In this document: in pieces, positions 26,922 through 60,941 of the stretch | How positions within the stretch are numbered: position 1 is the stretch's first letter | How the letters are laid out: each line of letters opens with the position of its first letter | Assembly (NCBI GenBank): GCA_965261595.1 | Contig: CBDHDG010000007.1 | Location: 1,280,001 to 1,344,000, forward strand | Source: a bacterium | GTDB taxonomy: Bacteria; UBA8248; JACPRG01; G963555815 | Length of the DNA stretch: 64,000 nucleotides | Direction: 5' to 3' | Translations under genes and position numbers: made by a program | The notes under the pieces: generated by a model | What the model saw: the letters and a program-made list of their open reading frames with translations, nothing else | Told to the model about the DNA's origin: nothing | The model's database searches: none

Positions 26922-26929
26922 TGCTCACC

Positions 26930-38859: not shown

Positions 38860-39042
38860 TCCGGCTCCTCTTCCAACCATCAATGGCTGGTCTTGCCCCG
38901 GCACGCAAAGCCCGCGCTCCTGAAGCACATCAAGTGCGATGCGGCGACCGCTTGATGGCCGCGCGGCATCGTCCCGCTCCTGCCGCGCCCGAAGCCCATG
39001 CACCCAATCAACATGCTTCAATGTGCAATCTTCACGTCGTCC

Positions 39043-39912: not shown

Positions 39913-40798
39913 GTTGCTTCACTCCAGATTTACAGGCACTTTCCGTATTTTTTACAATGCGAGAACTACACAATATCCCAAGATGTCCTAGACGGTTGAG
40001 CAGGCGCTATTGTATCCTACTGGCGAACTTGCCATGCGGTGCAGCCCGCAGAATGGCCTTTAGCGCTCGCTGCACAGCCTCAAGTGAACCGAGATTCCCC
40101 ATGTGGATGCTTCCAGCGTCTTGAACATGTCTCGACATTGGCCACGTGGCAAGTCGCCGGGCCATTGCAGAGCATCATCGAGCCGATTCCATGCGACGAA
40201 TGTCCGATCGCGGCGTTGGTTGGCGAAACTGACGTTTGGGCTGTTTTCGAGACACATCGCGTCTCTTGTCTATATGGATGCGCGGTATCCCGTGCAACGC
40301 GACAATCACCGTGGGCTTGGCGCGCGCCTGACGGAGACAATTCGGTATCCGTCCACCTTGTGCAGCATAGCCAGCTAAGCCACCGTATTCATTCCACTCA
40401 AAGCGCATTGCGGGTTCCCGATCATCGAACCTACCTCCACGATATCTTTGCCTCTTATGCAATCGCGCATCCAAGCGGCCAGTCGCCAAGCCCGCAACCC
40501 GGCAGCCACGCTGGGTTTTCTCCGCAGCAGGCCGGCAAGGCACCGCGCTTCCGTCATCGCATAGCAATCGGCCCGTTTCCATAGCGGGAGCGTGCATGGC
40601 GTCTTCGGTCGAAATCGGCGCACGAATTCCCCTTCACCGCCGCGGCGTGTCGCGAGGACCTCAGGAACGCGGTTTCATTCATCCCCTTCACGGCGCGCCT
40701 CCATTCATCAAAGCCCTCCGCGCAGTTCCTCGATCGCCAGGGCCCTGTGGTTCTCTCGCAGACATACTCCATGATCGGCATCGTCTCCAGCGCCCGGC

Positions 40799-41161
40799 CG
40801 TCCCCGGCCGGCAATTCACTTCCAGATGCGCCTCGACATAGCGCTCCGCCAGGTCGGCCACGGTCGGCTCAGGCGCGGGCTGCTCCGGAAACGCCTCCTC
40901 GCCCTTCTTCAGACGGTCGATGACCTCCGCGGCCACACGCCGCGCATCCTCGACCGTGATATCGACCTTCCGGCCGATCGCCACACGCTTCAGCGCGCCG
41001 CCCGGCGCCCGCGCGTGGACCACATAGACCTTGCGCCCGCTGGCATGGATCCGCACACCGAACCCGGTGAGGTCGCAGTCGTAGAACACCCGGTCGCCGC
41101 GCTCGACCGCGAGCGCCTCGACCACGCGCCTGCTCAGCTTGAGAGTGCTCCTTCGAGGCAT
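40799..41161 (-). pseudogene. Truncated third tyrosine integrase (arm-binding N-terminus only)
   Basis: MPRRSTLKLSRR...DLTGFGVRIHASGRKVY; paralogous to 20485. Confidence 0.88.
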
Positions 41162-41415
41162 GCGCCGCTCTCCCATCCTCCCGTGACCGAACGCACCGTC
41201 GCCCGGAGTTCCGCCGCCGACCCGTCCGGCCGCCGGGAATTCCGTGAACACCCAGATACCAAACGGTGTGCAATGCCAGTGTATGAGAGTCCATCCGTGA
41301 CGCAAATGCAAGCCCTAAGTGGGCTTTCTCATACATCGTAACTTATTGTAAATGATAGTATTTGACCCCTCGTTGTAGCCCGGAAGCATCCGAACCTATC
41401 ACTCCTTCAGGTTTC

Positions 41416-41548
41416 CATGATCTACGGCACTCTTGTGCAATATACGGGGATTTCCACGTGCTCAAAAGTATCGTATCTATTTGTTATCACTTGTTATTCT
41501 CACCAACATCGCAACCGGATTTGATCAATATACAGGCATGACATGTCC
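41416..41548 (+). repeat. Conserved junction sequence, copy 2 (related to 22879-23053)
   Basis: CATGATCTACGGCACTCTTGTGCA...ATTTCCACG...TATCTATTTGTT...TCGCAACCGGATTTGATCAATATACAGGCATGACATGTC. Confidence 0.8.
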
Positions 41549-41594
41549 GTGAAAGTCGTAATCATTCGGTTGTGCCGTGATGGGCGGGCTGACT

Positions 41595-42422
41595 TTAGCG
41601 GTTGAGAGTTCGTTTCCAATTTTTTCTGAGAGGGCGAAGCCAGATGTCCTTTTTCGGTTGGGCGCGTCTCGTGTACCTGTCGTAGCGCCCACGTCCCTGA
41701 GTGGTTCCGACGTGGATCCAGCCCGATGCCCTGTAGACGGCGCCAGTGTAGCGCAGGGTCTGGACGAAGGTCTCGATGGCACGGGGGTTCTGTTGTAGCG
41801 CCCGGCTCAGTCCTCGGGCAGGCGCTGGCGGACGATGGCGAGGATGAGCGAGCCCAGGTTGGGGATCGCGATCCAGGGCAGGATGAGGAAACTCGGGTTG
41901 TCGACCACGAGGGGGAGGTTCTTCTCGCGCAGTTGCGGCGTCCAACCGATGAAGCGGTCGCGTGGCGCGAGCTTCCACGCGGCGGTGTAAAGCCGAGCAT
42001 GGCGACCGGTCGTGGACGGCGTAGCGCATCTGGGTGCCGACGAGGGTTTTGTAGCCGAGATAGTGGTAGCGGGCGACGAACTCGTTCCACCGCTTGCCCT
42101 CGCGGGTGTCGCGGACGACGAGCCGCAGGTCGAGCGGGTGGACCTCGTCGAGGGTTGCCGGCGCCGGGATCAGCGGCGGTTCGATCTCCGGCCCGAAGAC
42201 GATCGGGCCGGGCCGGTTCTGCCGCCACTTCGGCGGCGGCAGGGCGATCAGGCCGTCGGGCTTGAGCCAGCGGATGTTGAGCCAGCGGATGCGCCGACAG
42301 AACTCCTTCGACAGCGCATGGCGGTTCAACGCCGGAGGGCCGCCGATCAGCGAGCACAGCAACCCCATCTCTTGCGTCGTGAAGTCACGGCCGTAATAGT
42401 GGCACTCGACCGCGCCGCTCAT
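41595..42422 (-). pseudogene. DUF4338 (DruA-like) domain gene, frameshifted, next to an IS66-like end (GTAATCATTCGG at 41558)
   Basis: WNEFVARYHYLGY, MRY, AWKLAPRDRFIGW (other frame), ETFV...YRASGW..VG.T.GRGR. Confidence 0.8.
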
Positions 42423-42578
42423 CCCGGCGCCATGAGGGCGCGCCTGCGTTCCCCGCTCATCGACCACGGCAACCATGGCGATGGGTTGTCCGGTGTGGGG
42501 TTCGTATAGATCATTTCAATTCGTGCAGATTCTGATCCATCACGTAGTTCTGGTCCCGGATTCGCTCCTTGGTCGGAT

Positions 42579-43763
42579 TGGAGTTGCCCCGTTTTTGTGG
42601 ACACCTTCAGACTGTGCGGAGGAGGTGTTCAGATGCCGAAAACTCATTCACCCTACGCGCCGGAGTACCGGCGCCAGATGGTTGAGCTGGTTCGCTCGGG
42701 CCGTACGCCCGGGGAGCTGGCCCGGGAGTTCGAGTGTTCCGCTTCGGCGATTCGCAACTGGGTGCGCCAGGCCGACCGCGACGAGGGCCGTCGTGAGGAC
42801 GGTCTGACAAGCTCAGATCTCGAGGAGCTACGGCGGCTTCGTCGGGACAATCGCCAGCTTCGCGAAGAGCGGGAGGTCCTAAAAAAGCCGCGGTCTGGTT
42901 CGCACGGGAGACCGGCTCGGTGCCGGGGAGGTCTTCGGGCTCGTGAAGGCGAACCAGGCCTGTCATCGGGTGGCCACGATGTGCCGGGTGCTGGGTGTCT
43001 CCTCCAGCGGGTACTACACGTGGCGAAGCCGTGGGCGTTCCAATCGTGCGAAGCACGACGAGGCGTTGGGGGGCACGATACGGGCCATCCACGAGGCATC
43101 TGGCGGCACCTACGGGGCGCCTCGGGTCCATGCCGAGCTGATGGCCGGCGGCTGCCGGGTGAGCCGCAAACGGGTGGCTCGTCTGATGCGCGAGGCGGGC
43201 TTGGCCGGGGTGAGCCGACGCCGAGGCACGCGCACTACGCGGGTGGACCAGAGCCATTGTGTGGTCCCGGACCGGGTCGAACGCCAGTTCCAGGCCGATG
43301 CGCCGGATCGGCTTTGGGTGGCCGACGTGACCTACGTGCCGACCTGGACGGGGTTCGTGTACCTGGCCATCGTGCTCGACGTGTTCAGCCGCCGGGTGGT
43401 GGGATGGCCCATGACCCACCATCTTCGCACCGAACTGGTGCTCGGGGCGCTGAACATGGCGTTGGGACAGCGCCGCCCCGACGGGGTCGTACATCACTCC
43501 GACCAGGGCTCGCAGTACACCGCGCTTGCCTTTGGGAAGCGGTGCCGGGAGATGGGGGTGGTTCCGTCGACCGGGTCGGCCGGGGATTGCTTCGACAACG
43601 CCATGGCCGAGAGCTTGTTCGCCACGCTGGAGTGCGAGCTCATCGACCGGCGCTCGTTCCGTACCCAGGCCGAAGCGCGCATGGCGATCTTCCAATTCAT
43701 CGAAGGCTGGTACAACCCACGCCGTCGTCATTCGGCCCTGGGTTACCTCAGCCCCAACGACTA
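42579..43763 (+). mobile_element. IS3-family element, right end lost
   Basis: IRL TGGAGTTGCCCCG; orfA MPKTHSPY from 42633; orfB YGAPRV, WVADVTY, HSDQGSQY, DNAMAES. Confidence 0.9.
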
Positions 43764-46082: not shown

Positions 46083-46351
46083 TGGTGCAACTGGGGGCCG
46101 CCGCCGGGGACAGGGAACCGCGAGCCCTGGGGCGAGCGCATCGACATCAAGATGGCGTGAGTGTGGGACGGTGCGCCGTTTCCCGCCCTGTCCTCCACTT
46201 GGTCGGCATGTCCATTCACCGGCCGGTTTCCCGAACGCGCCGATCCCCGCCGCGAGACCGAGGCCGGGCGGCGGCCGGGCGAAGCGCGGGCGCGGAGGCG
46301 AGGCAGGCGCCATGCCCCGGCCCCGCGCGCCGTCCCAACGGAGGAACCGCC

Positions 46352-46594
46352 ATGACCGATACCAACATCACGGAGGAGCACCGACGGGCCTTCTCGGCCC
46401 TGACCAGCGGCGACTGTGAGAACCTCGCTCTCTTTTCCTGCTTCTGTGACGGCCGGCCCACGGCGGCCATCGCCGCGGTGACCGTCCACCCGCCGGCCCA
46501 CGAAGACGGCGAGGCGGAATACCGCGTCAGCCCGCTGTTCATCGGCCTCACGCCGGACATGATATTAACCGACCATGACGGGCGCGAGGCATGA
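46352..46594 (+). CDS. Small acidic protein (DUF6117-like)
   Basis: GGAGGA RBS; NLALFSC..DG.P...Y.VSPLF; ATGA-coupled to the next gene. Confidence 0.65.
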   Translation: MTDTNITEEHRRAFSALTSGDCENLALFSCFCDGRPTAAIAAVTVHPPAHEDGEAEYRVSPLFIGLTPDMILTDHDGREA

Positions 46595-47487
46595 GCGCCG
46601 ACGTCATGCGCCGCCGGTCTCCGGCCGATCCGGGCCGCATCCCGCACATTCCCTTGCCGCCGGAATGCCGGGAGATGATCCGGCGCGGCGCGCTCTTCGC
46701 CCTGAACCACAGCGGCGGCAAGGACAGCCAGGCGATGACGATCCTTCTCGCCCGGATCGTCCCCCGGCAAAACCTTCTGGCGGTTCACGCCCCGCTCGGC
46801 GAGGTGGAATGGCCTGGCACCATCGAGCACATCGAGGCAACGATCCCGGGCGGCGTGCCCCTCGTTTTCGCGCCCGTCGCTTCCGGCAAGACGCTTCTCG
46901 ACAGGATCGAGGAACGGGGCCGGTTCCCCTCGGCGTCCGTTCGCTGGTGCACTTCCGATTTCAAGAGATCGCCCATCGAACGCGAGCTACGGCGTTATCT
47001 CAAGGCCCATCCCCGCTTCGGCAGATGCGTCGTGAACTGCATGGGGCATCGCGCCGACGAAAGCGCCGCCCGCGCCGTGCGGGCCGCCTGGAGACGCAAC
47101 GCCCGCAACAGCAAGGCGGGCCGGGAGTGGGTGGACTGGCTTCCGGTCCATGCCCTCTCGACCGCCGACGTGTTCCGGGTCATCCGCGACGCCGGCCAGT
47201 CGCCGCACTGGGCCTATGCGGCCGGCATGACGCGGCTCTCTTGCAGCTTCTGCATCCTCGCGTCCCGCCAAGACTTCCGCACCGCGGCGCGGCTCCGTCC
47301 GGCGCTTTATCGCCGCTACGCCGCGCTCGAGCGGCGCATCGGCCACACGCTGTCGCCGTCGCGAATCCCCCTGCCCGAACTGACGGGCGTGCCGGCCGAG
47401 GCCGGGCAAACCCCCTTCGGAGGAGTCTCGCATGCCGCTCGATACCGCCGTGACCGAGCGCGCCGCCCGCATCCTGATCGAACGTGA
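46591..47487 (+). CDS. PAPS-reductase family protein
   Basis: SGGKDSQAM, RWCTSDFK, GHRADESAAR, RLSCSFC. Confidence 0.9.
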   Translation: MSADVMRRRSPADPGRIPHIPLPPECREMIRRGALFALNHSGGKDSQAMTILLARIVPRQNLLAVHAPLGEVEWPGTIEHIEATIPGGVPLVFAPVASGKTLLDRIEERGRFPSASVRWCTSDFKRSPIERELRRYLKAHPRFGRCVVNCMGHRADESAARAVRAAWRRNARNSKAGREWVDWLPVHALSTADVFRVIRDAGQSPHWAYAAGMTRLSCSFCILASRQDFRTAARLRPALYRRYAALERRIGHTLSPSRIPLPELTGVPAEAGQTPFGGVSHAARYRRDRARRPHPDRT

Positions 47488-47934
47488 TCCGGGTCCAGGT
47501 GACCGGCTCGACGCCTTTCTGCTGCTCACCGGCCAGGAGTATCTGTGGCGCCGCCGAGACCGCCTCGGCGCCGACTTCGGCGAGGCGGTCCGCATGTACG
47601 AGCCGCGGCCGGCCGGCGCCTCCCGAGGCCCACGTCGCTCCCCTTCTTCGGCGCGGTCAAGCGGCGGCGCATCGAGCGTCGCCGGGAAGTCGCCGTCTGG
47701 CTCGCGGGCCGCTTCCTCGACTGGCTGTACAGCCCCGATGGCCGGGGCCGCGCTTCCGACACGGACTGGCGTCCGGGCCCCAGCCTGTCGATTGGCCTGG
47801 AGCTGCCGTACGAAACGGCCCTGAAGGAGCCTCCCCGTTCGCTTCCCCATGCCGAGCGTCGCGTGACCGAGCTCGCCCTCGCGAACGTGGTCGACCCCGG
47901 CGTTGAGGGTGTCGCCCGTGAGCCGCACCGTTGA
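47432..47934 (+). pseudogene. Hypothetical protein, frameshifted near 47610
   Basis: GGAG RBS; protein-like sequence switches from ORF 47432 to the frame of ORF 47545..47934. Confidence 0.5.
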
Positions 47935-48119
47935 CGGCACGCCGGCGCCGGCGCCGCTTCCCCGCCGAGCCGACCTGCCGCCCGGCATCCTCCCGCAATC
48001 CGCCTCGCGGTCCCGCGTGCGCGCCCCCGCGAGGCCGAGCCGGGCCGGGGCCGGTCGCAGGCCGGACGGCCGGAGCGGCCGTTCCCCGCGCCATCCACTT
48101 TCATCCATGGGAGATACGC

Positions 48120-50438
48120 ATGAACCACATCGCTTCCCCGCCCGAACCCGTCATCCGAACCATCCCGCTGAGCCGGCTGGACCTGGCCCCGGAGAACGTG
48201 CGCAAGACCCCGGCCGGCTCGGCTGGGATCGCCGAGCTCAAGGCCTCCATCGCAGCCCACGGTCTGCTCGAGAACCTGGTCGCCCGGGCCCAAGGCCCCG
48301 GTCCGGACGGCATCGGCCGCTACGCGGTCATCGCCGGCGGGCGCCGTCTCGTCGCCCTGCAGGCTCTCGTCAGCGATGGTGTGCTCGATGAGGACCACCC
48401 CGTGCCCTGTTTGATTGCCGTCAATGGCGATTGCGGAGAGCTGTCTCTCGCAGAGAACGTGGTCCGCATCGCCATGCACCCGGCCGACCAGGTGATCGCG
48501 TTCTACAGGCTCGCCGAATCCGGCGTGACGATATCCGCGATCGCCGCGCGCTTCGGCATCTCCGAGCGCCTGGTCGAACAGCGCCTGCGGCTCGGCCGTG
48601 CGGCCCCGGAACTGCTCGACGCCTACCGGGCCGAGGAGATCGACCTGGAGACCCTGAAGGTCTTCGCGGTCACGACCGACCACGGCCGCCAGAGGGCGGT
48701 CTGGGCCCAGGTGAAGGACCAGGGCTGCCGGCCAGGGGCCTGGCAGGTGAGGCGCATGCTGACCGAGGACCGCGTGCCGGGAACCGCCGCCATCGCGCGC
48801 TTCGTCGGTATCGATGCCTACGAGGCCGCGGGCGGGGCCATCACCCGGGACCTCTTCGCACAGGAGGACGACCGTGGGATCTGGTTCGACGACCCCGCGC
48901 TTCTGAACAAGCTCGCCATGCAGAAGCTCCAGGACACGGCGGACGAGCTGGACACCTGCTGGAAGTGGGCCGAGGCGGCGCCGGAGTTGGACTGGAGCGC
49001 GACCGCGCGGTTCGGGCGCATCCGGCCCGAGCCCGCGGAGCCGACCGACGAGGAGCGGGCCGAGCTCCAGCGGCTGAGCGCCCGCCATGACGAGCTCGCC
49101 GACATGGACGACGAAGACTGGACTGGGGAGCTCGTGGAAGAGGCGGAAGGCATCGAGAGGCGTCTCGACGAGATCCACGCGGCCGTGGAAGCGCGGGCCA
49201 CCTTCCGGCCCCAGGACATGGCCATGGCCGGGTGCATCGCGACCATCGGCCAGGACGGCGCGCTCCAGGTCATCCAGGGCCTGGTCAGGCCCGAGGACAT
49301 GCCCGAGAAGGCCGGCAAGGACGCAGACGGACTGGAAGCCGACACCGGGGACAGCGGCGCAGCCGAGCTTGGCCGCGTCGATGGCCCCGAGATCTCGGCC
49401 CCCATCGCTTCGCCTCCCGACCCGCGCGCCAAGGCCCGGGAGGAGGCCGGAGTGGGCATCGGCCTCGCCGACGACCTGCGGGCGGTCCGCACGGCCCTGG
49501 TCAAGGCGCATCTGGCCAAGGACTACGAGGCGGCGTTCGATCTCATGCTGTTCCAACTCGCCCGGGCCGTGTTCACGAACGTCCACAGGGCCGACGCCCT
49601 CGACGTCGCCGTCAAGGAGACCGCCGACCGGCCCACATCGCGCATGAACGACGAGGCGTTCGCCAACTGGAGCCCGGGCGAGGCCATGCTGGCGGACCGC
49701 TCCGGCCTCTCCCTCGACTGGATGGAGAAGGAGGACGAGGGCGAGTCCTTCGCGGCCTTGCAGGCCCTTCCCGAGGGGGAGAAGCAAGCCCTGTTCTCAG
49801 CAGCCGTGGCGCGCACGGTCAAGGGCCAGCTCGCCTTCGAGCCCGACGCCCGGCCCGAGCTGGAAGCCACCATCGCCCGGCTCGACATCGACTTCGCGAA
49901 GCACGTGCGCCCGACAGAGGACATGCTCTGGTCGCGCATCAGGAAGGACCGGATCCTCGCCGTGGCGCGCGAGACCCTGGGCCCTGCCTGGGCCTCGGCG
50001 CGCTCGAAGTACAAGAAGGCCGACCTCGCCAAGGCGATGGAAGGGGCTTTCGCGGCCGGAGACCCGCCCGTCGGACTCACCGCCTCTGCCAGAGCCGCCG
50101 CTCTCGCCTGGACTCCGCCCGGCTTCGCGCCCTTCGACACGGGCCGCGTGGAGGAGCCGGACAGGGACGTCCCGCCGGCTGGCGAACCCGAACCGGATCC
50201 CGCTCCGGTTCCGGACACCATGGAAGTCGTTGATGACGGCGTCCCCGATACGGTCGGCGGCGATGCGTCGGAAGCCTCGGGTCCCGGTGTGCCGGCAGAC
50301 AAGGACCCCGGCCCGGAGACCGCCAATGGCGGCCCCAGCATCGACGTGTCCCAGGAGAACGTCCTCACCCCGCCACGGACCAACGGCCGTGACAGCGGCG
50401 ACGGGCTGGACATCCCCGAGTTCCTGCGCCGGGCCTGA
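48120..50438 (+). CDS. Plasmid/ICE-type ParB N-terminal domain protein with FtsZ-like C-terminal peptide
   Basis: NVRK, GLLENLV, AGGRRL, SLAENVVR..MHPADQ, HTH; ends LDIPEFLRRA. Confidence 0.92.
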   Translation: MNHIASPPEPVIRTIPLSRLDLAPENVRKTPAGSAGIAELKASIAAHGLLENLVARAQGPGPDGIGRYAVIAGGRRLVALQALVSDGVLDEDHPVPCLIAVNGDCGELSLAENVVRIAMHPADQVIAFYRLAESGVTISAIAARFGISERLVEQRLRLGRAAPELLDAYRAEEIDLETLKVFAVTTDHGRQRAVWAQVKDQGCRPGAWQVRRMLTEDRVPGTAAIARFVGIDAYEAAGGAITRDLFAQEDDRGIWFDDPALLNKLAMQKLQDTADELDTCWKWAEAAPELDWSATARFGRIRPEPAEPTDEERAELQRLSARHDELADMDDEDWTGELVEEAEGIERRLDEIHAAVEARATFRPQDMAMAGCIATIGQDGALQVIQGLVRPEDMPEKAGKDADGLEADTGDSGAAELGRVDGPEISAPIASPPDPRAKAREEAGVGIGLADDLRAVRTALVKAHLAKDYEAAFDLMLFQLARAVFTNVHRADALDVAVKETADRPTSRMNDEAFANWSPGEAMLADRSGLSLDWMEKEDEGESFAALQALPEGEKQALFSAAVARTVKGQLAFEPDARPELEATIARLDIDFAKHVRPTEDMLWSRIRKDRILAVARETLGPAWASARSKYKKADLAKAMEGAFAAGDPPVGLTASARAAALAWTPPGFAPFDTGRVEEPDRDVPPAGEPEPDPAPVPDTMEVVDDGVPDTVGGDASEASGPGVPADKDPGPETANGGPSIDVSQENVLTPPRTNGRDSGDGLDIPEFLRRA

Positions 50439-50465
50439 ACCGTCCCCGCATTCCCATCCCTCATG

Positions 50466-50503
50466 CGCCCCGCCGGTCCCGCGCCGGCGGGGCGCTTTTC
50501 GTT
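50466..50503 (+). terminator. Intrinsic terminator after parB
   Basis: GCGCCCCGCCGG-loop-CCGGCGGGGCGC followed by TTTTCGTTT. Confidence 0.8.
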
Positions 50504-50530
50504 TCGGCCGCTTCCACGGAGACCGTCCCC

Positions 50531-52273
50531 ATGAACGACATTCCCGTCACGGCGCCCCGGCCCTGGCCCGGCCGCATCCGGGCGCGGATCCATGACAGCG
50601 CCCTCCAGCGCGTCACCCGGCTCTGGGCCGCCACAACCATCGACACCCTCGTGGAGAGTTTCCAGAATGGCAGAAGGGCCGGCGCGACGCGCGTGTCGGT
50701 GATCGTTACCGATCCCGCCGGTGAGCCATCCGACAACAGCGCCCTGACCGTCACCGATGACGGCATCGGCATCGCCGATCCCGCCGTGCTCCTGAGTCTT
50801 GGCGAGACCGGATGGGACGGGGAGCTTGCCGGCCGAGAGGACGCGGCCGGGATGGGATTCGCCAGCCATGCCCGCCAAGGCTGCCGCATCGTCTCGCGTC
50901 CCCGCTCCCGTGGCGGCGAGCCCGGCCCCGGCTGGCGCGTCGATCTCAGCCCCGCGCATTTCCTGGGGGAGGAGGAGGCGACCGTCGTCCCGGAGGACGG
51001 CGCGCCCTGGCCCCATGGCACGGCCGTCAGCTTTACGGCCTCGGGCGACCGCGATTCGATCCGCCGGGCGGTCGAAGCCGCGGCCCGCCATTATCCGCTC
51101 CCGGTCACGCTGGACGGGGAGACCGTGCCCCGCCGGGCCTTTCTCGACGGGGCCGTTGACGCCGAGCCTTGGCGGGGACTCGTCTTCGGCGTGTTCGTGG
51201 GCCGCAGCCGCGGCTACAACGAGCCCGACCTCAACTTCCACGGCCTCACCCTGCCGGTGCGCCTGCCCACGGTCGATCCCGTGACCGGCCAGACCTGGTC
51301 GGTCCGCGCCGAGGTCGTGAGCTGTCCCGAACTCGAGCTGGTGCTGCCGGCTCGGAAGGAGGCGGTCGAGACCCCTTTCCTGAACGAGACGCGAGAGGCC
51401 GCGCGGCTCGCCGTCTACCGGGCCATGGCGTCGACCGAGGCGCCGCCGCGCATCGCCTTCGAGGACTGGACCCGGGCGCGGGAAGCCGGGATCGAGCTTC
51501 CGATACCGTCCCCCCAACTGCGTCCCTGGCGTCCCTGCATCGCCGATATCGACGATTGGCGCGAGGCGCCCGCTCTCGCATCCGTATCCAACGATGCGCT
51601 CGTGATGCACGTGGATCCGGAACCGCCCGAAGCCCAGGCTCTCTGGCGCGCCGCCGAACATGGCGGGATAGCCCCACGGCTCTTCGAGGCCGACCGCCGG
51701 CTCGACGGCTACGGCTGGTACGACGCGCTTCCCCGCGTCACCGATGTCCGCACCGAGATCGTGATCAACAACGAGGCCCGTCCGCCGGAGGACTACCGGA
51801 CTCCGTCAGAAGGGTCCAGCCCCGTCGAGCCGCCTCCACGGCCGGATGGGATCCGCATGCGTCTCGATGTCGAGGGCCGAGGGGGAAAGACCGGGACTCT
51901 CGATCTCGATACCGATCTCGCCTTCGCCGGCGAGGCCTGGGCCTGGCTTCCCGATGCGAAGCCGCTGGTCATGGCCGAGAGCGCCCTTGAGCCCGCCGAA
52001 CTCGCCGAGCTGCTGCGCGCCGCCTGGTTCTCTCCGTCGGATGAAGCCGATTCGGACAGTTGGGAGACCCAGCGCCTGCGCTTCGACGAAGAGGCCATGC
52101 ACATAGCCGTGAAGCTCCTTTGCTCGGCGGACGAGGCCCGCCGGACATCCATCGCCGAAGCGGTCAGGCGCGAGCTGTTCTGGCTCATCCCCCGGGACCG
52201 CGAGGTCACCATTGCCGTGCGCGGGAGGGAGGTCAGCGTCGATCTCGGCGCCGCCAAGGAGACTGCGCGATGA
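50531..52273 (+). CDS. GHKL (HATPase_c) ATPase domain protein
   Basis: ESFQNGRRAGA, VTDDGIGI, AGMGF, HGTAV. Confidence 0.85.
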   Translation: MNDIPVTAPRPWPGRIRARIHDSALQRVTRLWAATTIDTLVESFQNGRRAGATRVSVIVTDPAGEPSDNSALTVTDDGIGIADPAVLLSLGETGWDGELAGREDAAGMGFASHARQGCRIVSRPRSRGGEPGPGWRVDLSPAHFLGEEEATVVPEDGAPWPHGTAVSFTASGDRDSIRRAVEAAARHYPLPVTLDGETVPRRAFLDGAVDAEPWRGLVFGVFVGRSRGYNEPDLNFHGLTLPVRLPTVDPVTGQTWSVRAEVVSCPELELVLPARKEAVETPFLNETREAARLAVYRAMASTEAPPRIAFEDWTRAREAGIELPIPSPQLRPWRPCIADIDDWREAPALASVSNDALVMHVDPEPPEAQALWRAAEHGGIAPRLFEADRRLDGYGWYDALPRVTDVRTEIVINNEARPPEDYRTPSEGSSPVEPPPRPDGIRMRLDVEGRGGKTGTLDLDTDLAFAGEAWAWLPDAKPLVMAESALEPAELAELLRAAWFSPSDEADSDSWETQRLRFDEEAMHIAVKLLCSADEARRTSIAEAVRRELFWLIPRDREVTIAVRGREVSVDLGAAKETAR

Positions 52274-52761
52274 AGAAGCCATACACGGTCCAGTGCGCCC
52301 ATGCGGCGTATTACGGCAACATCGTCACCGTCGAGGCCGATACCCTTGACGAAGCCCTGGACAAGGCGATCCAGGAAACCGACGGCGATGCGGCCGGCTG
52401 ACGTTCCATGGACGACGCCGGCCCGACCTTCGTCGTCGAAGTCCGCGAGGGAACCCACCTCGATCCCTTGGATCGTAAGACCCCGGCGCTTCCCATTCCC
52501 GACCGGTTCACCGAGCAGGGCGAGCCGCCGGTGGTCACCCTTATTGATCCCGGTCAGCCAGGCGGCGGCGCCATCGAGGTTTCCCGGGGCCGGATTCTGC
52601 TTTGCTTCACGACCCGGAACGGAACGGTCACGGGCGAGGTTTCCGATCCGCCCCATCCCCCGGCCAACCACCCCCTCGTCGTCATTCGGCGCCGCGCCGA
52701 CGGCGCGCCCGACGTCACCGTGACCGAGGGCCGGGCCCGGGTCCGCATCCTCTACCCCTGA
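52270..52761 (+). pseudogene. Hypothetical protein with an in-frame TGA at 52399-52401
   Basis: ORFs 52270..52401 and 52408..52761 share a frame. Confidence 0.6.
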
Positions 52762-52854
52762 CCCCGGCTTCCCGCCGCCGGCCGGACGGGCGGAGGCGCT
52801 GGAGCGTCTCTGGCCTCTCCACGTCCGTCCTTCACGTACTGGAGAACCCGACCC

Positions 52855-53256
52855 ATGAAACTCATGACCGAAAAGCAGCGCGAAAAACTGCTCGCCAACG
52901 GCGCCGACCGCGGGGCCGACCGCGGGGCCGACCATGTCCCGGTGGTCAAGCTCTTCAACCCCTGCGGAGCGGGAACGTGGATCGTCACGGAGCTGGATCC
53001 CGAAGAACCCTCCGTGGCTTTCGGACTCGCGGATCTCGGCTTCGGCTTTCCCGAGCTGGGCAGTTTCAGCCTGGAGGAACTGTCCGCCTTCCGGGGCCCC
53101 TTCGGCCTCGGGATCGAGCGGGATCTGCATTTCGAGGGCAAATACAGCCTCGCCACCTACGCCGACGCCGCCCGGGCCGCCGGCCATATCGTCGAGTACG
53201 GTCCCGAGCTCGACGCCGCCGCGCACCGCCGCACCCACGCGGCAGCCGGTGCCTGA
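52855..53256 (+). CDS. DUF2958 family protein
   Basis: PVVKLFNP.GAGTW..TELD...FGLADLG.GFPELG..S..EL...IERDLHF. Confidence 0.9.
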   Translation: MKLMTEKQREKLLANGADRGADRGADHVPVVKLFNPCGAGTWIVTELDPEEPSVAFGLADLGFGFPELGSFSLEELSAFRGPFGLGIERDLHFEGKYSLATYADAARAAGHIVEYGPELDAAAHRRTHAAAGA

Positions 53257-53415
53257 CCCTGGCCTCCCGTCGCCAGCCCACACCGGGATTCAGCGGCGAC
53301 GCGCCTTGCGTCTCTATAAGACGAGCCTGGCCCGGCCGGGTCGATCCGTGAGGCCCGGGGGCGTTTCCCCCCCGCCAGCCCCCGACTTCCAAGACTTCCG
53401 AGGAGAAGACCCCCC

Positions 53416-56400
53416 ATGCCCCACGCCCTGACGGCGGTGGAGGGCGGGCCTGTGAACGCTCGTTCGCACGCCCCCCGGTCCATTCCGTCCATGCCCACGG
53501 CCGCCCTGTTCGCCGCGGCCCAGACCCTGTTGCCTGTACTGACAGCCGGCCGGCCTCTCGACGCGGCCACCCTCCGCCAAGCCATGACCCAGGCCTTCGG
53601 GGCCACCGACGCCGAGGGGGCCTGGGTCTGGAAGGACGCCTACGAGGCCGCCGAAGCGGCCGTCGTGCTCTTCCTGAAGCGCTACGGCCGGGCCATGTGC
53701 CGCCGGGCCGGAGCCGGCGGCCCGCCCGCCATGCTGGCCCTGCTGCAAAAGATCGCGGCCCTGGAGCCCTCCCACACGAAGCGATCCGAGTCCCAGGTCC
53801 GGCTCCAGCAGTTCTCCACGCCCCTGGGCCTCGCCTATGCGGCCTTGCAGGCGGCCGCCATCCGGCCCGGCGACATCGTGCTCGAACCCAGCGCCGGGAC
53901 CGGGATCCTCGCCGTCATGGCCGAGTGCGCCCTCGGGGCCGGCGGCGAAGGCGCGCTCCATCTGAACGAGATCGCCGGGGCCCGGGCCGGCCTCCTGTCC
54001 CGGCTCTTCCCCAAAGCCTCGGTGACCGGGTTCAACGCCGAGGCCATCGCCGACCGTCTCCCGGACGTCCGGCCGACCGTGGTGCTCATGAACCCGCCGT
54101 TCTCCGCGAGTCCGGGGGTGCATCGCATCCGCCATGACGCTGACCTGCGCCACCTGCGCTCGGCCTTCGCCATGCTGGGGCCTGGGGGCCGGCTCGTGGC
54201 CGTCACCTCGGCGGGCTGCATGCCCGGGGACAGCGCCTGGAAGGACGCCTTCGAGCGCCTCGATCCCCCGGCCCGCGTCGTCTTCTCCATGGCCATTGAC
54301 GGCCGGGCCTATGCCAGACGCGGGACCACCTTCGACACCCGCCTGACCGTGCTCGACCGGAGCGGGGACCGCGAGCATGCCGCGATCGATCCCGCGGCCC
54401 GGGCGGACAGCTCCGCCGAGCTCCTCGAAGCCGTCATGGCGGGCGTGCCGGCGCGCCTCGCCACTGGCGCTGTCGAGACCCCGGACACAGCCGCTCCGAT
54501 CCGGGACCTCTTCGGCGACACGGCCCCGGTCAAGTCAAAAGAGCGCACGATCACGGCCAGGCCCGCCCACCGGCCAGCCGAAGACAAGGACCGCCGTCAC
54601 GACTGGGGGCCTGTGTCCGAGCTCGCGTATGCGACGGCCCCGGTCTCCGGCGATGCCCCCGCCGGCTCCGAGACCGCTACCGGCCCCTATGCGCCCTGGA
54701 AGCCGGGCATTGTCCATGTCCCGGGCGCCGTCGTCCATCCCACGCCCCTGGTCCAGTCCGCGGCCATGGCCGCCGTACCGCATCCCGGCCCGTCCTACCG
54801 TCCGGTGCTGCCCGCGCGCGTGGTGACCGACGAGCTCCTGTCCGACGCCCAGATCGAGAGCGTCGTCCTGGCCGGCGAGGCCCACAACCGCCATCTTTCG
54901 GCCCGCTACCGGATCGGCTCGGGCTGGGAGACGGTCCACCGCTGCAATGATGACGGTGGTGACGGTGACGCCACTAACGACGACGGAGAAGTACTCTCCG
55001 AACCCGTGCGCTTCCGCCGCGGCTGGATGCTGGGCGACGGCACGGGATGCGGCAAGGGCCGGCAGGTCGCCGGGTTCCTCCTCGACAACCGGCTCCGCGG
55101 AAGGAAACGGGCCCTGTGGCTGTCGCAGTCCGACAAGCTCGTGGAGGACGCCCGCCGGGACTGGGCCGCCCTCGGGGGGAACGAGGACGATGTGATCCCC
55201 TTGGGCAAGTTCCGCCAGGGAGCGGAGATCCCGCTCCCGGAGGGCATCCTGTTCGCGACCTACGCCACGCTGCGCTCGCCGGCCCGCCAGGGTAAGGCCT
55301 CGAGGCTCGAGCAGATCGTCTCCTGGCTCGCGGGGGGAACGGAAGAAGACCAGCGTCACGCCTTCGACGGCGTGATCGTGTTCGACGAGGCCCACGCCAT
55401 GGCCAACGCGGCCGGCTCCAAGGGAGCGCGCGGGGAGGTCAAGCCCTCGGCCCAGGGACGGGCCGGACTCAGGCTTCAGAACGCACTGCCCGACGCCCGT
55501 GTTCTCTACGTCTCGGCCACCGGGGCCAGCACCGTGCCCGGCCTCTCCTACGCCGGACGCCTCGGCCTCTGGGGAGCGGAGGAGACGCCCTTCGAGACCC
55601 GGGGGGATTTCGTGTCGGCCATGGAGGCGGGAGGCGTCGCCGCCATGGAGGTGGTCGCCCGGGACTTGAAAGCCCTCGGGCTCTACCAAGCCAGGGCCCT
55701 GGCCTATAACGGCGTGGAGATCGACATCCTGCAGCACCCGCTGGCGCCTGAGCAGCGGCGTATCTACGACGCCTATGCAGGCGCCTTCAAGGTGATCCAC
55801 GCCAACCTCCAGGACGCGCTCGAGGCCACCGGCGTCATGCAGGGAGACTCGACCCTGAACAGGAACGCCAAGTCCGCGGCCCTGAGCGCCTTCGAGGGGG
55901 CGAAACAACGCTTTTTCGGCCACCTGCTGACCGGCATGAAGTGCCCGTCCCTGATACGCGCCGTCGAGGCCGATCTCGATGCCGGCCGGTCGGCCGTGAT
56001 CCAGCTCGTGTCCACGGGCGAGGCCCTGATGGAGCGCCGCATCGCCGAGATCCCCGCGTCCGAATGGGACGACCTCTCCATCGATCTCACGCCCAGGGAA
56101 TACGTTCTGGACTTCCTGGCCCACGCCTTCCCGGTGCAGCTCCAGGAGCCCTTCACCGACGAGGAGGGCAACCTCATGAGCCGGCCCGTGTTCGATGAAA
56201 ACGGCAACCCCGTGCTCTGCCAGGAGGCCCTGGCCAAACGCGAGGCCCTGATCGGGAAGCTGGCCTCGCTTCCGCCCGTGCAGTCGGCCCTGGACCGGAT
56301 CATCCACCACTTCGGCCACGAGGCCGTGGCCGAGGTCACGGGCCGGTCCCGCCGGGTGCTCAGGATCGCGGACGGCCGGGGCGAGCGCCTGGCGCTGCGC

Positions 56401-57900
56401 AGCCGGCCCGCCTCCGCAAGCCTGACCGAGACCGCCGCCTTCATGGACGGGGAGAAGAAGATACTCGTCTTCTCCATGGCCGGCGGCACGGGACGCAGCT
56501 ACCATGCCGATCTTGCATGCGGCAACACCGCGCGCCGGGTCCACTACCTGCTTGAGCCCGGCTGGCGGGCCGATCAGGCCATACAGGGGCTGGGCAGGAC
56601 CCACAGGACCCACCAGGCGTCGGCCCCCGTGTTCCGGCCCGTGACCACGGACGTGAAGGGCGAGAGGCGGTTCATCGCCACCATCGCGAGAAGGCTCGAC
56701 TCCCTCGGGGCCATCACCCGGGGCCAGCGGGACTCCCAGACCGCCATGGCCGGCGATGACGCGGCGCTGTTCCGCGAGAGCGACAACCTGGAGAGCCCCT
56801 ACGCCAAGGCGGCGTTGAGAAGGTTCTACATCGCCCTGTGGCGCGGCCGCATCCCGGACTGGTCCCTCAGCCGCTTCGAGGAGGCCACCGGCCTCGCCCT
56901 CACCTGGGAGGGAGCGCTCAAGGACGACCTGCCGCCCATGTCCAGGTTCCTGAACCGCCTGCTGGCGCTGCCCATCGACGAGCAGAACGCGCTCTTCGCC
57001 GAGCTGGAGTCCCTCATCGCGGAGAACGTCGAGCAGGCGATCGAGGCCGGCGCCCATGACATCGGCGTGGAGACCCTGCGGGCCGAATCGCTCGCGGTGG
57101 CCGGCCGCGAGACCCTCTACACCCACCCCGGGACCGGAGCCGCGACCGATCTCGTCGAGATCCTCCTCCGCGACCGGCTGGAGCCGACCCCGGCGGACGC
57201 GGCGCTCGAGATCGGCGCCCTGGGCGGGGACAGCCGGCCTGAACTCGTCGTCAACAGCCGCTCGGGACGGGGGGCCGTTGTCCTGCCCGCGCCGTCCAGG
57301 ATGCTCGACGACGGCGGGGTGCAGGAGCGGGTGCGCCTCCTGCGGCCCACGGCCCGGGAAGCCATGGCCAGGGCCGAGCTCGAGGCCTCGAACTGGCGCA
57401 GGGCCTCGGAGGGGGAGTGGCGTTCCCGCTGGGAGGAGGAGATCGCCGGCCTGCCGACGCATACCGAGTCCCGCTTCTGGCTCGTCACCGGGCTGCTCCT
57501 GCCGATCTGGGACCGGCTCGGAATGGAGAACATGCGCGTGCGCCGGCTGTTGACCGACGCCGGCGAGGCGATGATCGGCCGCGTGCTCGACGCCGAACAG
57601 GTACGGGCCGCGCGCACCTCTTTCGGCCTTGCCGGCGGTCCCGGCATGACCCCCCTCGAGACCTTCGAGGCGGTCATGGGGCGAGGCGCGTCCTTCGGCC
57701 TCGCGAACGGCTGGCGCCTCGCGCGCCGGCGCATCATGGGGGCCGACCGCGTCGAGATAGAGGGTCCCGTTGACGGCGACATCGCCGCGCTCAAGCGCAT
57801 GGGGTGCATCGTCGAGATCGTCTCCTGGCGCTCACGCCTCTTCGTCCCCGACGCCGGCGTGCTCGAACGCGTCATCGAGCGCTGGCCCATCGCGGCCTGA
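53416..57900 (+). CDS. Strawberry-notch family methyltransferase/helicase
   Basis: QQFSTP, LEPSAGTG, NPPF, GDGTGCGKGR, DEAH, SATGA, QGLGRTHRT. Confidence 0.95.
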   Translation: MPHALTAVEGGPVNARSHAPRSIPSMPTAALFAAAQTLLPVLTAGRPLDAATLRQAMTQAFGATDAEGAWVWKDAYEAAEAAVVLFLKRYGRAMCRRAGAGGPPAMLALLQKIAALEPSHTKRSESQVRLQQFSTPLGLAYAALQAAAIRPGDIVLEPSAGTGILAVMAECALGAGGEGALHLNEIAGARAGLLSRLFPKASVTGFNAEAIADRLPDVRPTVVLMNPPFSASPGVHRIRHDADLRHLRSAFAMLGPGGRLVAVTSAGCMPGDSAWKDAFERLDPPARVVFSMAIDGRAYARRGTTFDTRLTVLDRSGDREHAAIDPAARADSSAELLEAVMAGVPARLATGAVETPDTAAPIRDLFGDTAPVKSKERTITARPAHRPAEDKDRRHDWGPVSELAYATAPVSGDAPAGSETATGPYAPWKPGIVHVPGAVVHPTPLVQSAAMAAVPHPGPSYRPVLPARVVTDELLSDAQIESVVLAGEAHNRHLSARYRIGSGWETVHRCNDDGGDGDATNDDGEVLSEPVRFRRGWMLGDGTGCGKGRQVAGFLLDNRLRGRKRALWLSQSDKLVEDARRDWAALGGNEDDVIPLGKFRQGAEIPLPEGILFATYATLRSPARQGKASRLEQIVSWLAGGTEEDQRHAFDGVIVFDEAHAMANAAGSKGARGEVKPSAQGRAGLRLQNALPDARVLYVSATGASTVPGLSYAGRLGLWGAEETPFETRGDFVSAMEAGGVAAMEVVARDLKALGLYQARALAYNGVEIDILQHPLAPEQRRIYDAYAGAFKVIHANLQDALEATGVMQGDSTLNRNAKSAALSAFEGAKQRFFGHLLTGMKCPSLIRAVEADLDAGRSAVIQLVSTGEALMERRIAEIPASEWDDLSIDLTPREYVLDFLAHAFPVQLQEPFTDEEGNLMSRPVFDENGNPVLCQEALAKREALIGKLASLPPVQSALDRIIHHFGHEAVAEVTGRSRRVLRIADGRGERLALRSRPASASLTETAAFMDGEKKILVFSMAGGTGRSYHADLACGNTARRVHYLLEPGWRADQAIQGLGRTHRTHQASAPVFRPVTTDVKGERRFIATIARRLDSLGAITRGQRDSQTAMAGDDAALFRESDNLESPYAKAALRRFYIALWRGRIPDWSLSRFEEATGLALTWEGALKDDLPPMSRFLNRLLALPIDEQNALFAELESLIAENVEQAIEAGAHDIGVETLRAESLAVAGRETLYTHPGTGAATDLVEILLRDRLEPTPADAALEIGALGGDSRPELVVNSRSGRGAVVLPAPSRMLDDGGVQERVRLLRPTAREAMARAELEASNWRRASEGEWRSRWEEEIAGLPTHTESRFWLVTGLLLPIWDRLGMENMRVRRLLTDAGEAMIGRVLDAEQVRAARTSFGLAGGPGMTPLETFEAVMGRGASFGLANGWRLARRRIMGADRVEIEGPVDGDIAALKRMGCIVEIVSWRSRLFVPDAGVLERVIERWPIAA

Positions 57901-58080
57901 GCCTGTCCGTACAGCCGGCCCGCCGTCCGCCCGCGGGGGGGGCCGTTCCACCGCCTTCATCCGTATCGCCGTCCGCCCGGATACGTATCGGCCCGGAGCC
58001 GTCTGGAACCCGTATGGCCGGGGGGGGGGCATCACCCACGCCCCCCGGCACACCGCCGACACCTCACGGGAGACCCGAAC

Positions 58081-58350
58081 ATGACCGCGCACACCCTGCC
58101 GGACAACCCCGACTACGCCTTCTGTCCCGCCTACGGCCTCGCCGACGAGCCGCAGCAGATCCGAATCGTCATCGACGGCATGGCGGGCTACGTTCCCACC
58201 GCCCTGGTCGCGCTCACCCTCGAGGACGCGGAGCGCATCTGCGACCGATTGAACGCTCGCCTCGGACTCTCGCGAAAGGACTGGACCGAACTCGCCGCAC
58301 GGTCCATGCGCGCCGAGAACGGTGCACCGGACAACGAGACCGTGCACTGA
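58081..58350 (+). CDS. Small hypothetical protein
   Basis: GGAGA RBS; globular-like sequence. Confidence 0.65.
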   Translation: MTAHTLPDNPDYAFCPAYGLADEPQQIRIVIDGMAGYVPTALVALTLEDAERICDRLNARLGLSRKDWTELAARSMRAENGAPDNETVH

Positions 58351-58392
58351 GTCGCCCGCCATGCTGCGCAGCCGGCCCGACGTCCTCCGGCC

Positions 58393-58773
58393 TCAACCCC
58401 GCCGCTTGAGCCACCACCACGCCGCCCAGACCGGAAGGCTGAGCACCGCCGCGTAGACGGCGATGGCGACCGGGCCGAGCAGTCCCGCCACCAGCGACGC
58501 CGCCACCGTGACGGCGCCGAGCCCGATCCCCGCCGTCCAGGCGGCGCGCCGGTAGCCCAGCCGCCACAGTCGCCGGCATCCCAGCGCCAGCGGCAGGCCG
58601 CACGGCGCAACCGGCACCAGCGACCCCGCCCACATCAGCGCCATCCACAGCCACATCCCGGGCTCCATCTCCGGCGCGAAGCGCACCGCCGCCGTCGCGA
58701 CCACTCCGGCGGGCAGCCACAGGAGCGCCAGCAGCCAGAAGCCGCGCCGCTTGATGAGTCCCTGGTCGTCCAT
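58393..58773 (-). CDS. Small multi-pass membrane protein
   Basis: About four hydrophobic segments from MDDQGLIK. Confidence 0.6.
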   Translation of the reverse strand: MDDQGLIKRRGFWLLALLWLPAGVVATAAVRFAPEMEPGMWLWMALMWAGSLVPVAPCGLPLALGCRRLWRLGYRRAAWTAGIGLGAVTVAASLVAGLLGPVAIAVYAAVLSLPVWAAWWWLKRRG

Positions 58774-59035
58774 GCGCCTTATCCGACTCGAAACTCGCAC
58801 CGCACGCAAGCCCGAGCGGGTCCGTGTTCGACGACAGCCGGGCGAGGGCGAAGACCGCGCAAGGTCGGCGAGCGGCTGCCGGCGTCCGTCGCGCCCTCTG
58901 AGCTCGCCCAGGGTCCCGTCACCGTCCTTCGAGCCAGAGGGAAGCAAGGGCCGGGCAAACGCCCGGCAGGGAAGAGGGAGACGGTCTCCCGGTCCCGATG
59001 CCGGGAACTGCAATCCCGGAACAGGAGACAAGCCC

Positions 59036-59176
59036 ATGATCGACCAGGACCTCGACCTCGAACTCCCCACAGGTGACGAACTGCTCGCCGAGATCGGCCT
59101 CGACTCTTACACCATCCGCAGGATCCTCACCGAAGCGGTCCATGCCGACACCGGCGAAGGAGAGGAGCTTTTCTAG
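59036..59176 (+). CDS. 46-aa acidic peptide
   Basis: AGGAGA RBS; MIDQDLDLELPTGDELL...EGEELF. Confidence 0.6.
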   Translation: MIDQDLDLELPTGDELLAEIGLDSYTIRRILTEAVHADTGEGEELF

Positions 59177-59266
59177 GGGGTGAACCAAGGGGCCGGAGAG
59201 AGAGGCTCTCCCCCCTTTTTACATCACCCGTTGTCTTCCACACCCTTAACTCTAAGGAGAATGATC

Positions 59267-59692
59267 ATGGCCTTCGGACTCAATCGCGCTGAAGTGATCG
59301 GCCGCCTCGGCGCCGACGTCACCGTCAACCACCTCACCAGCGGCGGACGCGTCGCGAACCTGTCGATCGCCACCGACGAGGGCTACATCGATAAGCAGAC
59401 CGGAGACCGGGTCGACAAGACCGAGTGGCACCGGGTCGTGACCTTCCAGCCCGGGCTGGTGGACATGTTCGAGAAGCACGCGACGAAAGGCCGGCTGGTC
59501 TATGTGGCGGGCAAGCTGCAGACCCGTCGCTGGAAGAAGGACGACGAGGACTCCGACCGGTTCTCGACCGAGATCCTGCTGGTTCCGGGCGGGCGCGTGC
59601 AGTTCCTCGACAAGCCCAACGGCAACGGCGCGCCGGTCGCGGAGGCGGAGACGCCGTCCGCCGAAGCGCCCATCGACGACATCCCGTTCTGA
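59267..59692 (+). CDS. ssb: Single-stranded DNA-binding protein
   Basis: LNRAEVIGRLGAD, TEWHRVV, GKLQTRRW, C-terminal DDIPF. Confidence 0.97.
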   Translation: MAFGLNRAEVIGRLGADVTVNHLTSGGRVANLSIATDEGYIDKQTGDRVDKTEWHRVVTFQPGLVDMFEKHATKGRLVYVAGKLQTRRWKKDDEDSDRFSTEILLVPGGRVQFLDKPNGNGAPVAEAETPSAEAPIDDIPF

Positions 59693-59720
59693 GCGCGCAT
59701 TCCGTTTCCTCCCTCTACCT

Positions 59721-59750
59721 GGGCCGGCGCTTCGCGCGTCGGCCCTTTTT
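59721..59750 (+). terminator. Intrinsic terminator after ssb
   Basis: GGGCCGGCGC-TTCGC-GCGTCGGCCC followed by TTTTT. Confidence 0.75.
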
Positions 59751-60900: not shown

Positions 60901-60941
60901 AGAGCGGGGGAGGGGTGAACGGCTCCAAAGGAGAAGAGAGC

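Follow-up and report, generated by a model that had tools for sequence, protein, structure and literature searches.

A conjugative element in a bacterial genome carries, in its leading region, a gene for a ParB-like DNA clamp whose extreme C-terminus looks like the peptide by which FtsZ docks on its partners. The gene lies within a 64,000-nucleotide stretch of contig CBDHDG010000007.1 (GenBank assembly GCA_965261595.1, positions 1,280,001 to 1,344,000), which was analysed as a whole and is called the window below. Its 772-residue product belongs to the HerB/YfjB family, and the last 12 residues, here termed the tip, form a strongly selected short linear motif on the disordered tether of a HerB-family clamp. 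Judged by sequence, the tip in the main clade of homologues is a close copy of the FtsZ docking peptide, combining an L/F-acidic-I/V-P-x-F-L-R-R core with a predicted nascent helix from the Pro onward and with 1-4 residues behind the core. Engagement of the receptors of the FtsZ tail is the best-supported mechanism for the tip, which we put forward tentatively and rate at somewhat below an even chance. The protein family is already known; the tail module and its FtsZ likeness turned up in none of the texts consulted.

A conserved tip behind a variable tether

The reading frame runs on the + strand from an ATG at 48120, a start supported by homologues, to the stop codon at 50436-50438; an open reading frame (ORF) listing had opened the same frame earlier, at TTG 47931. 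The protein ends in ...NGRDSGDGLDIPEFLRRA* and is laid out as follows in window coordinates, with confidence along the AlphaFold2 model given as the predicted local distance difference test score (pLDDT).

48120..50438, + strand: HerB/YfjB-family ParB-like protein, 772 residues (translation, homologues, IncFII match)
48156..48719, + strand: ParB N-terminal CTPase-type domain plus helix-turn-helix (HTH), about residues 13-200 (Foldseek, Pfam matches below the cut-off)
48720..50126, + strand: two more folded regions, mainly helical, about residues 201-669 (pLDDT mostly above 90 to about residue 680)
50127..50399, + strand: disordered Pro/acidic tether, residues 670-760 (composition, pLDDT)
50382..50387, + strand: Asn-Gly mini-motif N755-G756, 11 residues ahead of the tip Pro (homologue tails)
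50400..50435, + strand: FtsZ-C-terminal-peptide-like tip DGLDIPEFLRRA, D761-A772 (conservation, matrix score)

In the AlphaFold2 monomer model, built from a 57-sequence alignment, residues 4 to about 680 fold with high confidence (overall mean pLDDT 85.7). Between the last conserved core motif, W664-F669, and D761 runs a linker of 91 residues that includes 17 Pro, 13 Asp, 8 Glu and 12 Gly and has a net charge of -16. AlphaFold2 predicts this linker to be disordered, with a pLDDT below 50 for residues 693-764. A preliminary description of this DNA had reported a ParB-family ORF ending in an FtsZ-peptide-like tip behind a Pro/acidic linker, an arrangement that the sequence confirms. The linker length given there, about 85 residues, was about right, the interval assigned (50140-50438) corresponding to residues 674-772.

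The tip itself is modeled as a five-residue helix (767-771) with a pLDDT of about 55-60 and is not docked on the protein body. This bears on the possibility that the tip bends back onto the clamp body, in cis or in trans, to control its cytidine triphosphate (CTP)-dependent closing or clustering, in the manner of the autoinhibitory tail-core contact proposed for FtsZ (PMC12747378; this paper and PMC4117426, PMC8406263, PMC13370423 and PMC5512222, cited below, were covered in part). The undocked position and low confidence of tip and linker argue against such a contact, as does the frequency of tail-less relatives, and we consider it very improbable.

Conservation of the tip was followed in a homologue alignment of 233 sequences of at least 600 residues, 217 of them full-length, and a tip was scored as a hydrophobic residue, P, x, F/W and L/M/I near the C-terminal end. 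By this definition 160/217 full-length homologues carry a tip, distributed by core identity to the 772-residue protein as follows.

80% or more: 9/9
60-80%: 107/112
50-60%: 5/10
40-50%: 19/52
30-40%: 20/34

Homologues with a core identity of at least 60% are referred to as the main clade (121 sequences, 116 with the tip). These 116 keep [LF]-[DE]-[ILV]-P-E-F-L-R, and their logo reads [LF]-[DE]-[ILV]-P-E-F-L-R-[RG], followed by 1-2 residues, with P, F and L invariant. Among 40 homologues reaching down to 36% identity, P766 and F768 are likewise invariant and L769 is conserved in at least 90%. The linker drifts: in the 107 homologues of 60-80% core identity, identity to the 772-residue protein is no more than 0.32 in the linker (aligned columns only), against 0.70 for the core and 0.79 for the tip. 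The check that the preliminary description had proposed, conservation of the motif while the linker diverges, thus came out in its favor. The same pattern recurs within the genome itself, in which six copies of the ParB gene encode an identical D-G-L-D-I-P-E-F-L-R-R and the linkers of the five copies compared all differ from each other. Related loci offer 29 distinct nucleotide versions, throughout which P, F and L are unchanged and are spelled by varying synonymous codons. Taken at the level of sequence variation, the tip is under purifying selection.

Tail length ranges from about 20 to 164 residues across the homologues. The tip closes 159/169 tails of at least 25 residues versus 1/48 shorter ends, so that tether and tip behave as one module; several of the 10 long tails lacking it have Arg/Pro-rich, frameshift-like ends. 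When loci were drawn from named genome records, 55 of 80 encode the tip, 8 run off the contig and 17 end without it. A protein search with the tail alone (residues 733-772) gave 12 candidates, and the 9 that were scored are all close tail copies from the same ParB lineage, including two 446-residue fragments with no Pfam domain recorded, so that this search is silent on tips in other families.

Conservation extends upstream of the FtsZ-like core. An Asn-Gly pair occurs within 24 residues ahead of the tip in 110/116 main-clade tails, compared with 15/116 for a control window further upstream. It sits 10-12 residues ahead of the tip Pro in 95/116, often as V-N-G-H/R-D. Because this pair is conserved, the conserved segment spans about 20 residues and is longer than the FtsZ-like core.

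Likeness to the FtsZ C-terminal peptide

We scored FtsZ likeness with a 12-column matrix built from 19 distinct C-terminal windows of 28 complete FtsZ proteins of other genomes, into which no ParB sequence entered. The tip scored 20.1 bits and ranked 2-6 among 1,524,574 windows from the 4,717 coding-like ORFs of its own genome, these five ranks being held by the five ParB copies that passed the ORF filter; the top rank (20.6 bits) went to a segment inside an unrelated 328-residue ORF. When the last 45 residues of every ORF of the genome were scored, the best value outside ParB and FtsZ was 13.5 bits. The host's own FtsZ scored 19.3 bits for a tail-like repeat that lies 33 residues short of its end; its terminal peptide, in which Thr takes the place of the Ile, Val or Leu of other tails, reached 15.7 bits, less than the ParB tip. 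The tip is the most FtsZ-tail-like C-terminus of the host proteome. The host FtsZ (C5:538813-539935, - strand) is short, about 380 residues, with two peptides of tail-like sequence.

The median for main-clade tips is 18.6 bits, and 116/116 of them lie above the 99th percentile of the proteome (5.4 bits); tail-less homologues have a median of -6.5 bits. On these sequence scores, the resemblance of the tip to FtsZ tails exceeds what chance would be expected to produce. No other ORF with an FtsZ-like end was present in the flanks of 82 related loci, the remaining high scores there being split ParB genes only. A loose scan of the genome gave one more tip-like end, on a 575-residue ORF at C7:978477; it was set aside as a chance match, the protein resembling what we take to be a folded MmgE/PrpD-type enzyme.

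At the sequence level the tip fits the FtsZ-peptide consensus [LF]-[DE]-[IVL]-P-x-[FY]-[LI]-[RK]-[RK], and it stands at the extreme C-terminus behind a disordered linker of variable length, as the peptide does in FtsZ. As the protein is a ParB-like clamp, the tip is an FtsZ-peptide look-alike and not a member of the class. The tail of Escherichia coli FtsZ binds ZipA, FtsA, MinC, ZapD, ClpX and SlmA; I374 and L378 play a critical part in binding to ZipA, FtsA, MinC and SlmA, and the free tail peptide binds weakly, with a Kd of 20-81 uM (PMC4117426). The tip positions that match I374 and L378 are I/V/L and L, respectively, in 116/116 main-clade tips.

According to record titles, tip-bearing loci occur in Alphaproteobacteria (including Defluviicoccus, Paracoccaceae, Rhodospirillales, Roseovarius and Fulvimarina), Gammaproteobacteria (including Pseudohongiella), Candidatus Binatia, Thermodesulfobacteriota, 'Deltaproteobacteria', Dehalococcoidia, Vicinamibacterales and Gemmatimonadota, which we take to make up about six phyla. 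The contigs of these loci mostly measure 0.4-7 Mb, but for Gemmatimonadota there is only one of 5.6 kb. Chromosomes whose record titles name Alpha- and Gammaproteobacteria, Binatia, Thermodesulfobacteriota and Dehalococcoidia carry ParB genes with 60-67% identity to the 772-residue protein, and their presence in such different phyla points to a recent cross-phylum spread of the element family. The tip is also independent of the transfer backbone, being associated with MOBF and an F-type type IV secretion system (T4SS) here, with MOBQ/MPF_T on an Agrobacterium plasmid and with MOBP on a Phaeobacter plasmid. The plasmid homologue of Phaeobacter inhibens has a tip of the non-basic form.

FtsZ was found in 29/30 ParB-carrying genomes examined and had a canonical tail in 28/30, the carrier-host tails fitting [DE]-[ILV]-P-[ATP]-[FY]-[LI]-[RK]-[RK] or nearly so. 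In the genome that holds the window, ftsA lies just upstream of ftsZ, and MinC (PF03775) and SepF (PF04472) were not detected in this assembly, which is rated 96.7% complete. FtsA is therefore the only classical receptor detected here, ZipA and ZapD not having been searched for.

A HerB/YfjB-type clamp and the candidate partners of its tip

Homologues of the protein are numerous: of 8,000 candidates scored, 3,564 matched, a search at E <=0.001 gave 10,778 cluster representatives, and a plasmid collection has protein matches in at least 5,000 records. Its N-terminal part is ParB-like. Pfam ParB_N and HTH_ParB match the first 200 residues below their cut-offs, and Foldseek assigns a probability of 1.0 to ParB, Noc and KorB structures with a CTPase domain plus HTH over about 210 residues; a PDB sequence search also matches ParB, Noc and KorB structures for this part and gave no match for residues of about 201-669. 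A regular-expression search located the G-x-R-R-x-x-A box as G-G-R-R-L-V-A at residues 73-79, in which G73 and R76 are invariant and R75 is conserved in at least 90% of the homologue alignment.

A tblastn comparison with the ParB gene of an IncFII plasmid, which is flanked by ssb and psiB, covered residues 12-641 (82% of the protein) at 28% identity (E 1e-42). The protein is, by this sequence match, a homologue of the ssb-parB2-psiB ParB of IncF plasmids, that is, of HerB/YfjB. HerB is the 2026 renaming of YfjB or 'ParB2' (bioRxiv, PMC13370423). HerB of F is described as a CTP-binding clamp of ParB-like type that has the extra domains D3 and D4 and forms dimers by way of D4. It is induced right after transfer, acts transiently, forms nucleoid foci and reprograms host transcription, and its homologues are known in Alpha-, Beta- and Gammaproteobacteria and beyond (PMC13370423). 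Homology to the IncFII gene product spans both extra C-terminal domains, and the protein combines three attributes of the HerB/YfjB family: a ParB CTPase domain with HTH, homology over D3 and D4, and a location in a leading region.

Two other assignments were rejected. The protein is not a canonical ParABS ParB: it scores 32.7 bits on TIGR00180 versus a cut-off of 58.45, the ParA-binding motif [LFI]-G-[KR]-G-[LFI] (as defined in PMC12704722) has no match anywhere in the 772 residues, and no parA gene is adjacent, the neighbours encoding a PAPS reductase and a GHKL ATPase. A PRTRC-system ParB (TIGR03734) was dismissed at 60.1 bits versus a cut-off of 278.6, the match covering the N-terminal 160 residues only.

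Engagement of FtsZ-tail receptors would work as follows. The element would make a HerB/YfjB-type CTP clamp from its leading (establishment) region, and this lineage would have added to the clamp body a C-terminal module made of an acidic, Pro-rich tether of about 90 residues and the 12-residue motif. DNA-loaded dimeric clamps would display many tips, and these would dock in the pocket or pockets that normally take the FtsZ tail, on FtsA in this host. FtsZ might then be out-competed for its membrane anchor near the clamps, causing a transient, local delay of division during establishment; or the clamp-bound DNA might be tethered to membrane-bound FtsA or the divisome; or both might occur. The weak affinity of the free peptide fits a need for multivalent display by a DNA-loaded dimeric clamp. 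Since the FtsZ tail and its receptors are conserved across phyla, the tip would function in every host of a broad-host-range element. A more specific version, an 'inverse nucleoid occlusion' in which clamp arrays with FtsZ-like tails capture FtsA or other receptors, hold off septation or tie the membrane or divisome to DNA, and work unchanged from Proteobacteria to Chloroflexota, is possible and in our view on balance unlikely.

Several known systems come close to this one. HerB of the F plasmid and others shares the ParB CTPase domain and HTH, the two further domains that follow, the leading-region location and an element-borne ssb; it is described with only a short C-terminal extension, a predicted helix at 635-652 (PMC13370423), whereas the lineage studied here has a tether of 40-160 residues and the tip. 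FtsZ shares the variable disordered linker, the conserved peptide, the short variable end and the critical Ile and Leu; there, however, the tail is attached to a tubulin-like GTPase, and here it is attached to a DNA clamp, with Glu at the x position, an additional Asn-Gly and, in remoter members, no basic pair. Like Noc and SlmA, the clamp would be a DNA-bound protein linking the position of DNA with division. Among the structures that best match the N-terminal half is Noc, a ParB-like CTP clamp tying DNA to the membrane; SlmA, bound to DNA, binds the FtsZ tail, and the ParB-like clamp would instead carry a copy of that tail and be encoded by a mobile element. KilR of Rac and CbtA/YeeV are mobile-element proteins proposed to delay host division (for CbtA, PMC5512222), but they act directly on FtsZ or MreB polymerisation, and no copy of the FtsZ docking peptide is described for them in the portions of the sources covered.

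Several observations weigh against the engagement of FtsZ-tail receptors. The x position is Glu in 114/116 main-clade tips, compared with Ala, Thr, Pro or Asp in the 19 FtsZ windows, and the Asn-Gly pair has no counterpart in the carrier-host FtsZ tails compared. Across the carrier genomes examined, no covariation of the tip with the FtsZ tail of the individual host was seen. The remoter tips (below 60% identity) have a median of 3.0 bits, with 18/44 above the 99th percentile, and their logo (n=43) is [DE]-[LV]-P-A-F-[LM] followed by 0-33 mostly non-basic residues. As these tips score low and lack the basic pair, the ancestral tip was much less FtsZ-like. The tail also appears dispensable in evolution: a FastTree tree of 117 core sequences places 13-14 changes between 'tip' and 'no tail' (at least 13 state changes on the 117 rows), at least six of them forced by well-supported branches, and with the tip on both sides of the midpoint root the tree is silent on gain versus loss. 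The IncFII relative examined has no tail, and the main text of the HerB preprint reports the function of the protein and mentions FtsZ 0 times (PMC13370423). A gene-linkage result, finally, may point to a different partner. Among 68 loci with a complete ParB gene and at least 1.5 kb of downstream sequence, a GHKL gene lies within 600 nt downstream in 41/43 loci with a basic tip (a basic residue behind F-L), in 0/13 with a non-basic tip and in 2/12 without a tip.

This linkage suggests a rival reading in which the tip is a docking motif for a partner encoded by the element, the GHKL ATPase being the likeliest and a type IV coupling protein, with the tip as a translocation signal, the other candidate; the likeness to FtsZ would then be coincidental. 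The conserved upstream Asn-Gly, foreign to FtsZ, fits such a partner. A coupling-protein partner is also consistent with findings on the F-like plasmid pED208, whose leading-region protein ParB2, when fused to Cre, was translocated through the T4SS at about 1e-3 per donor (PMC8406263). The association of GHKL genes with basic tips is, however, confounded by phylogeny, since it falls within one clade, and 13 tip-bearing loci and two plasmid homologues have no GHKL gene nearby, which makes the tip older than the GHKL linkage. The sameness of the tip across MOBF/MPF_F, MOBQ/MPF_T and MOBP backbones argues against a coupling-protein signal, and so does the IncFII homologue, which is the counterpart of the translocated pED208 ParB2 and has no tip. 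An eight-position match to the FtsZ tail is, moreover, improbable as a coincidence. We rate docking on an element-encoded partner as distinctly unlikely.

Another conserved protein of the host, such as a component of the transcription or replication machinery, could instead be what the tip binds, with the basic pair as a clade-specific embellishment. The family-wide core is merely hydrophobic-P-x-F/W-L/M after acidic residues, and distant tips resemble FtsZ poorly. HerB is reported to act on host transcription (PMC13370423), and a bulky hydrophobic tip on an acidic tether could help to recruit such a partner. Yet our analyses yielded no candidate protein, and such a partner leaves unexplained the FtsZ-matching flank of main-clade tips, that is, the L/F, the acidic residue and the R-R. 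This reading seems improbable to us.

In the remote clade, many tails close with Ala-Ala or Ala-Ala-Glu shortly past the tip, endings that we take to resemble ClpXP tags and that keep alive a reading of the tail as a proteolysis tag or timer for ClpXP or another AAA+ protease, by which the clamp would be confined to the establishment window. ClpX is among the E. coli FtsZ-tail binders (PMC4117426), and HerB acts transiently after transfer (PMC13370423), both in line with such a tag. A degron, however, requires neither a 90-residue tether nor an upstream flank, and the invariant P, F and L lie several residues from an end that varies (-RRA, -RRVH, -RGD, -QK and others). We regard a protease tag as highly doubtful.

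Binding to FtsZ-tail receptors thereby keeps its place as the favored mechanism, at the tentative level given above. The host-division mimicry advanced in the preliminary description stands as far as FtsZ likeness is concerned, which is strong in the clade; the low scores of remoter tips, the Glu at x and the GHKL linkage count against its functional side. In a literature search that left subscription journals and bioRxiv supplements outside its scope (those of HerB may show tails), we found no account of a motif like the FtsZ tail on any ParB-like or other mobile-element protein. Literal motif strings matched only FtsZ papers and one unrelated paper, and the Glu form matched none. If the tip engages FtsZ-tail receptors, it would be the first case found of a mobile element copying the FtsZ docking peptide. 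The HerB family would gain, besides transcription, a second explicit handle on host physiology, in division or DNA-membrane tethering. The tip would further provide a natural, portable competitor peptide for studies of FtsA-FtsZ coupling across many phyla and help explain establishment in hosts as unlike as Alphaproteobacteria, Binatia and Dehalococcoidia. Should it bind something else, the strong selection on this short linear motif would still signal a further partner of the family.

The conjugative element and its gene neighbourhood

The ParB gene is flanked by the following genes of the element.

46591..47487, + strand: PAPS-reductase-family gene (Pfam PAPS_reduct 1.5e-7, above the cut-off)
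50531..52273, + strand: GHKL-type ATP-binding protein, 580 residues, starting 93 nt past the ParB stop (atlas neighbours)
52855..53256, + strand: DUF2958 gene (Pfam 1.9e-43)
53416..57900, + strand: Strawberry-notch-type helicase, 1,494 residues (Pfam AAA_34 4e-107, Helicase_C_4 3e-90)
59180..59692, + strand: element-borne ssb (Pfam SSB 1.8e-22)

The PAPS-reductase gene precedes ParB in 8/83 related loci, and its pairing with a ParB-like gene presumably resembles the IbrA/IbrB-type two-gene arrangement. The 580-residue protein has no Pfam or NCBIfam match; it was called GHKL-type from atlas neighbours named 'ATP-binding protein', of which 22-24% of members carry HATPase_c_3. Its gene directly follows ParB in 48/83 loci.

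Further downstream on the same contig, past the window, lie a gene for a 2,014-residue DEAD/MZB helicase and, 16-35 kb past the window end, genes for a TrwC relaxase, a TrwB/TraD-type coupling protein, TraG_N, TraU and TraC. These MOBF/F-type transfer genes identify the region as an F-type conjugative element together with its leading region. The element ssb and ParB together parallel the ssb-parB2 linkage of IncF leading regions. The 'mobile-element ParB' of the preliminary description can thus be placed more precisely, as the leading-region homologue of the IncF ssb-parB2-psiB ParB.

The module (window positions 46100-63800) is present about six times in the 6.2-Mb genome, at 75-97% nucleotide identity: 95-97% on three other contigs, about 82% elsewhere on the same contig and about 75-79% at a sixth site. 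The other copies lie at C4 ~917-930 kb, C5 ~1049-1060 kb, C6 ~1320-1340 kb, C7 ~57-67 kb and C2 ~53-65 kb. Several related conjugative elements or remnants therefore coexist in this genome.

The genome is also heavily laden with insertion sequences. One of 1.4 kb has apparently hundreds of genome copies at more than 99% identity (for example C7:1354286-1355690 and 1356675-1358079), and a second (window positions 42579-43762) has dozens. Upstream of the module, window positions 24162-42476 hold defence-type genes interrupted by transposases; these encode a 919-residue SIR2-like protein, an AbiEi/AbiEii pair, several HNH proteins and a DruA-like fragment.

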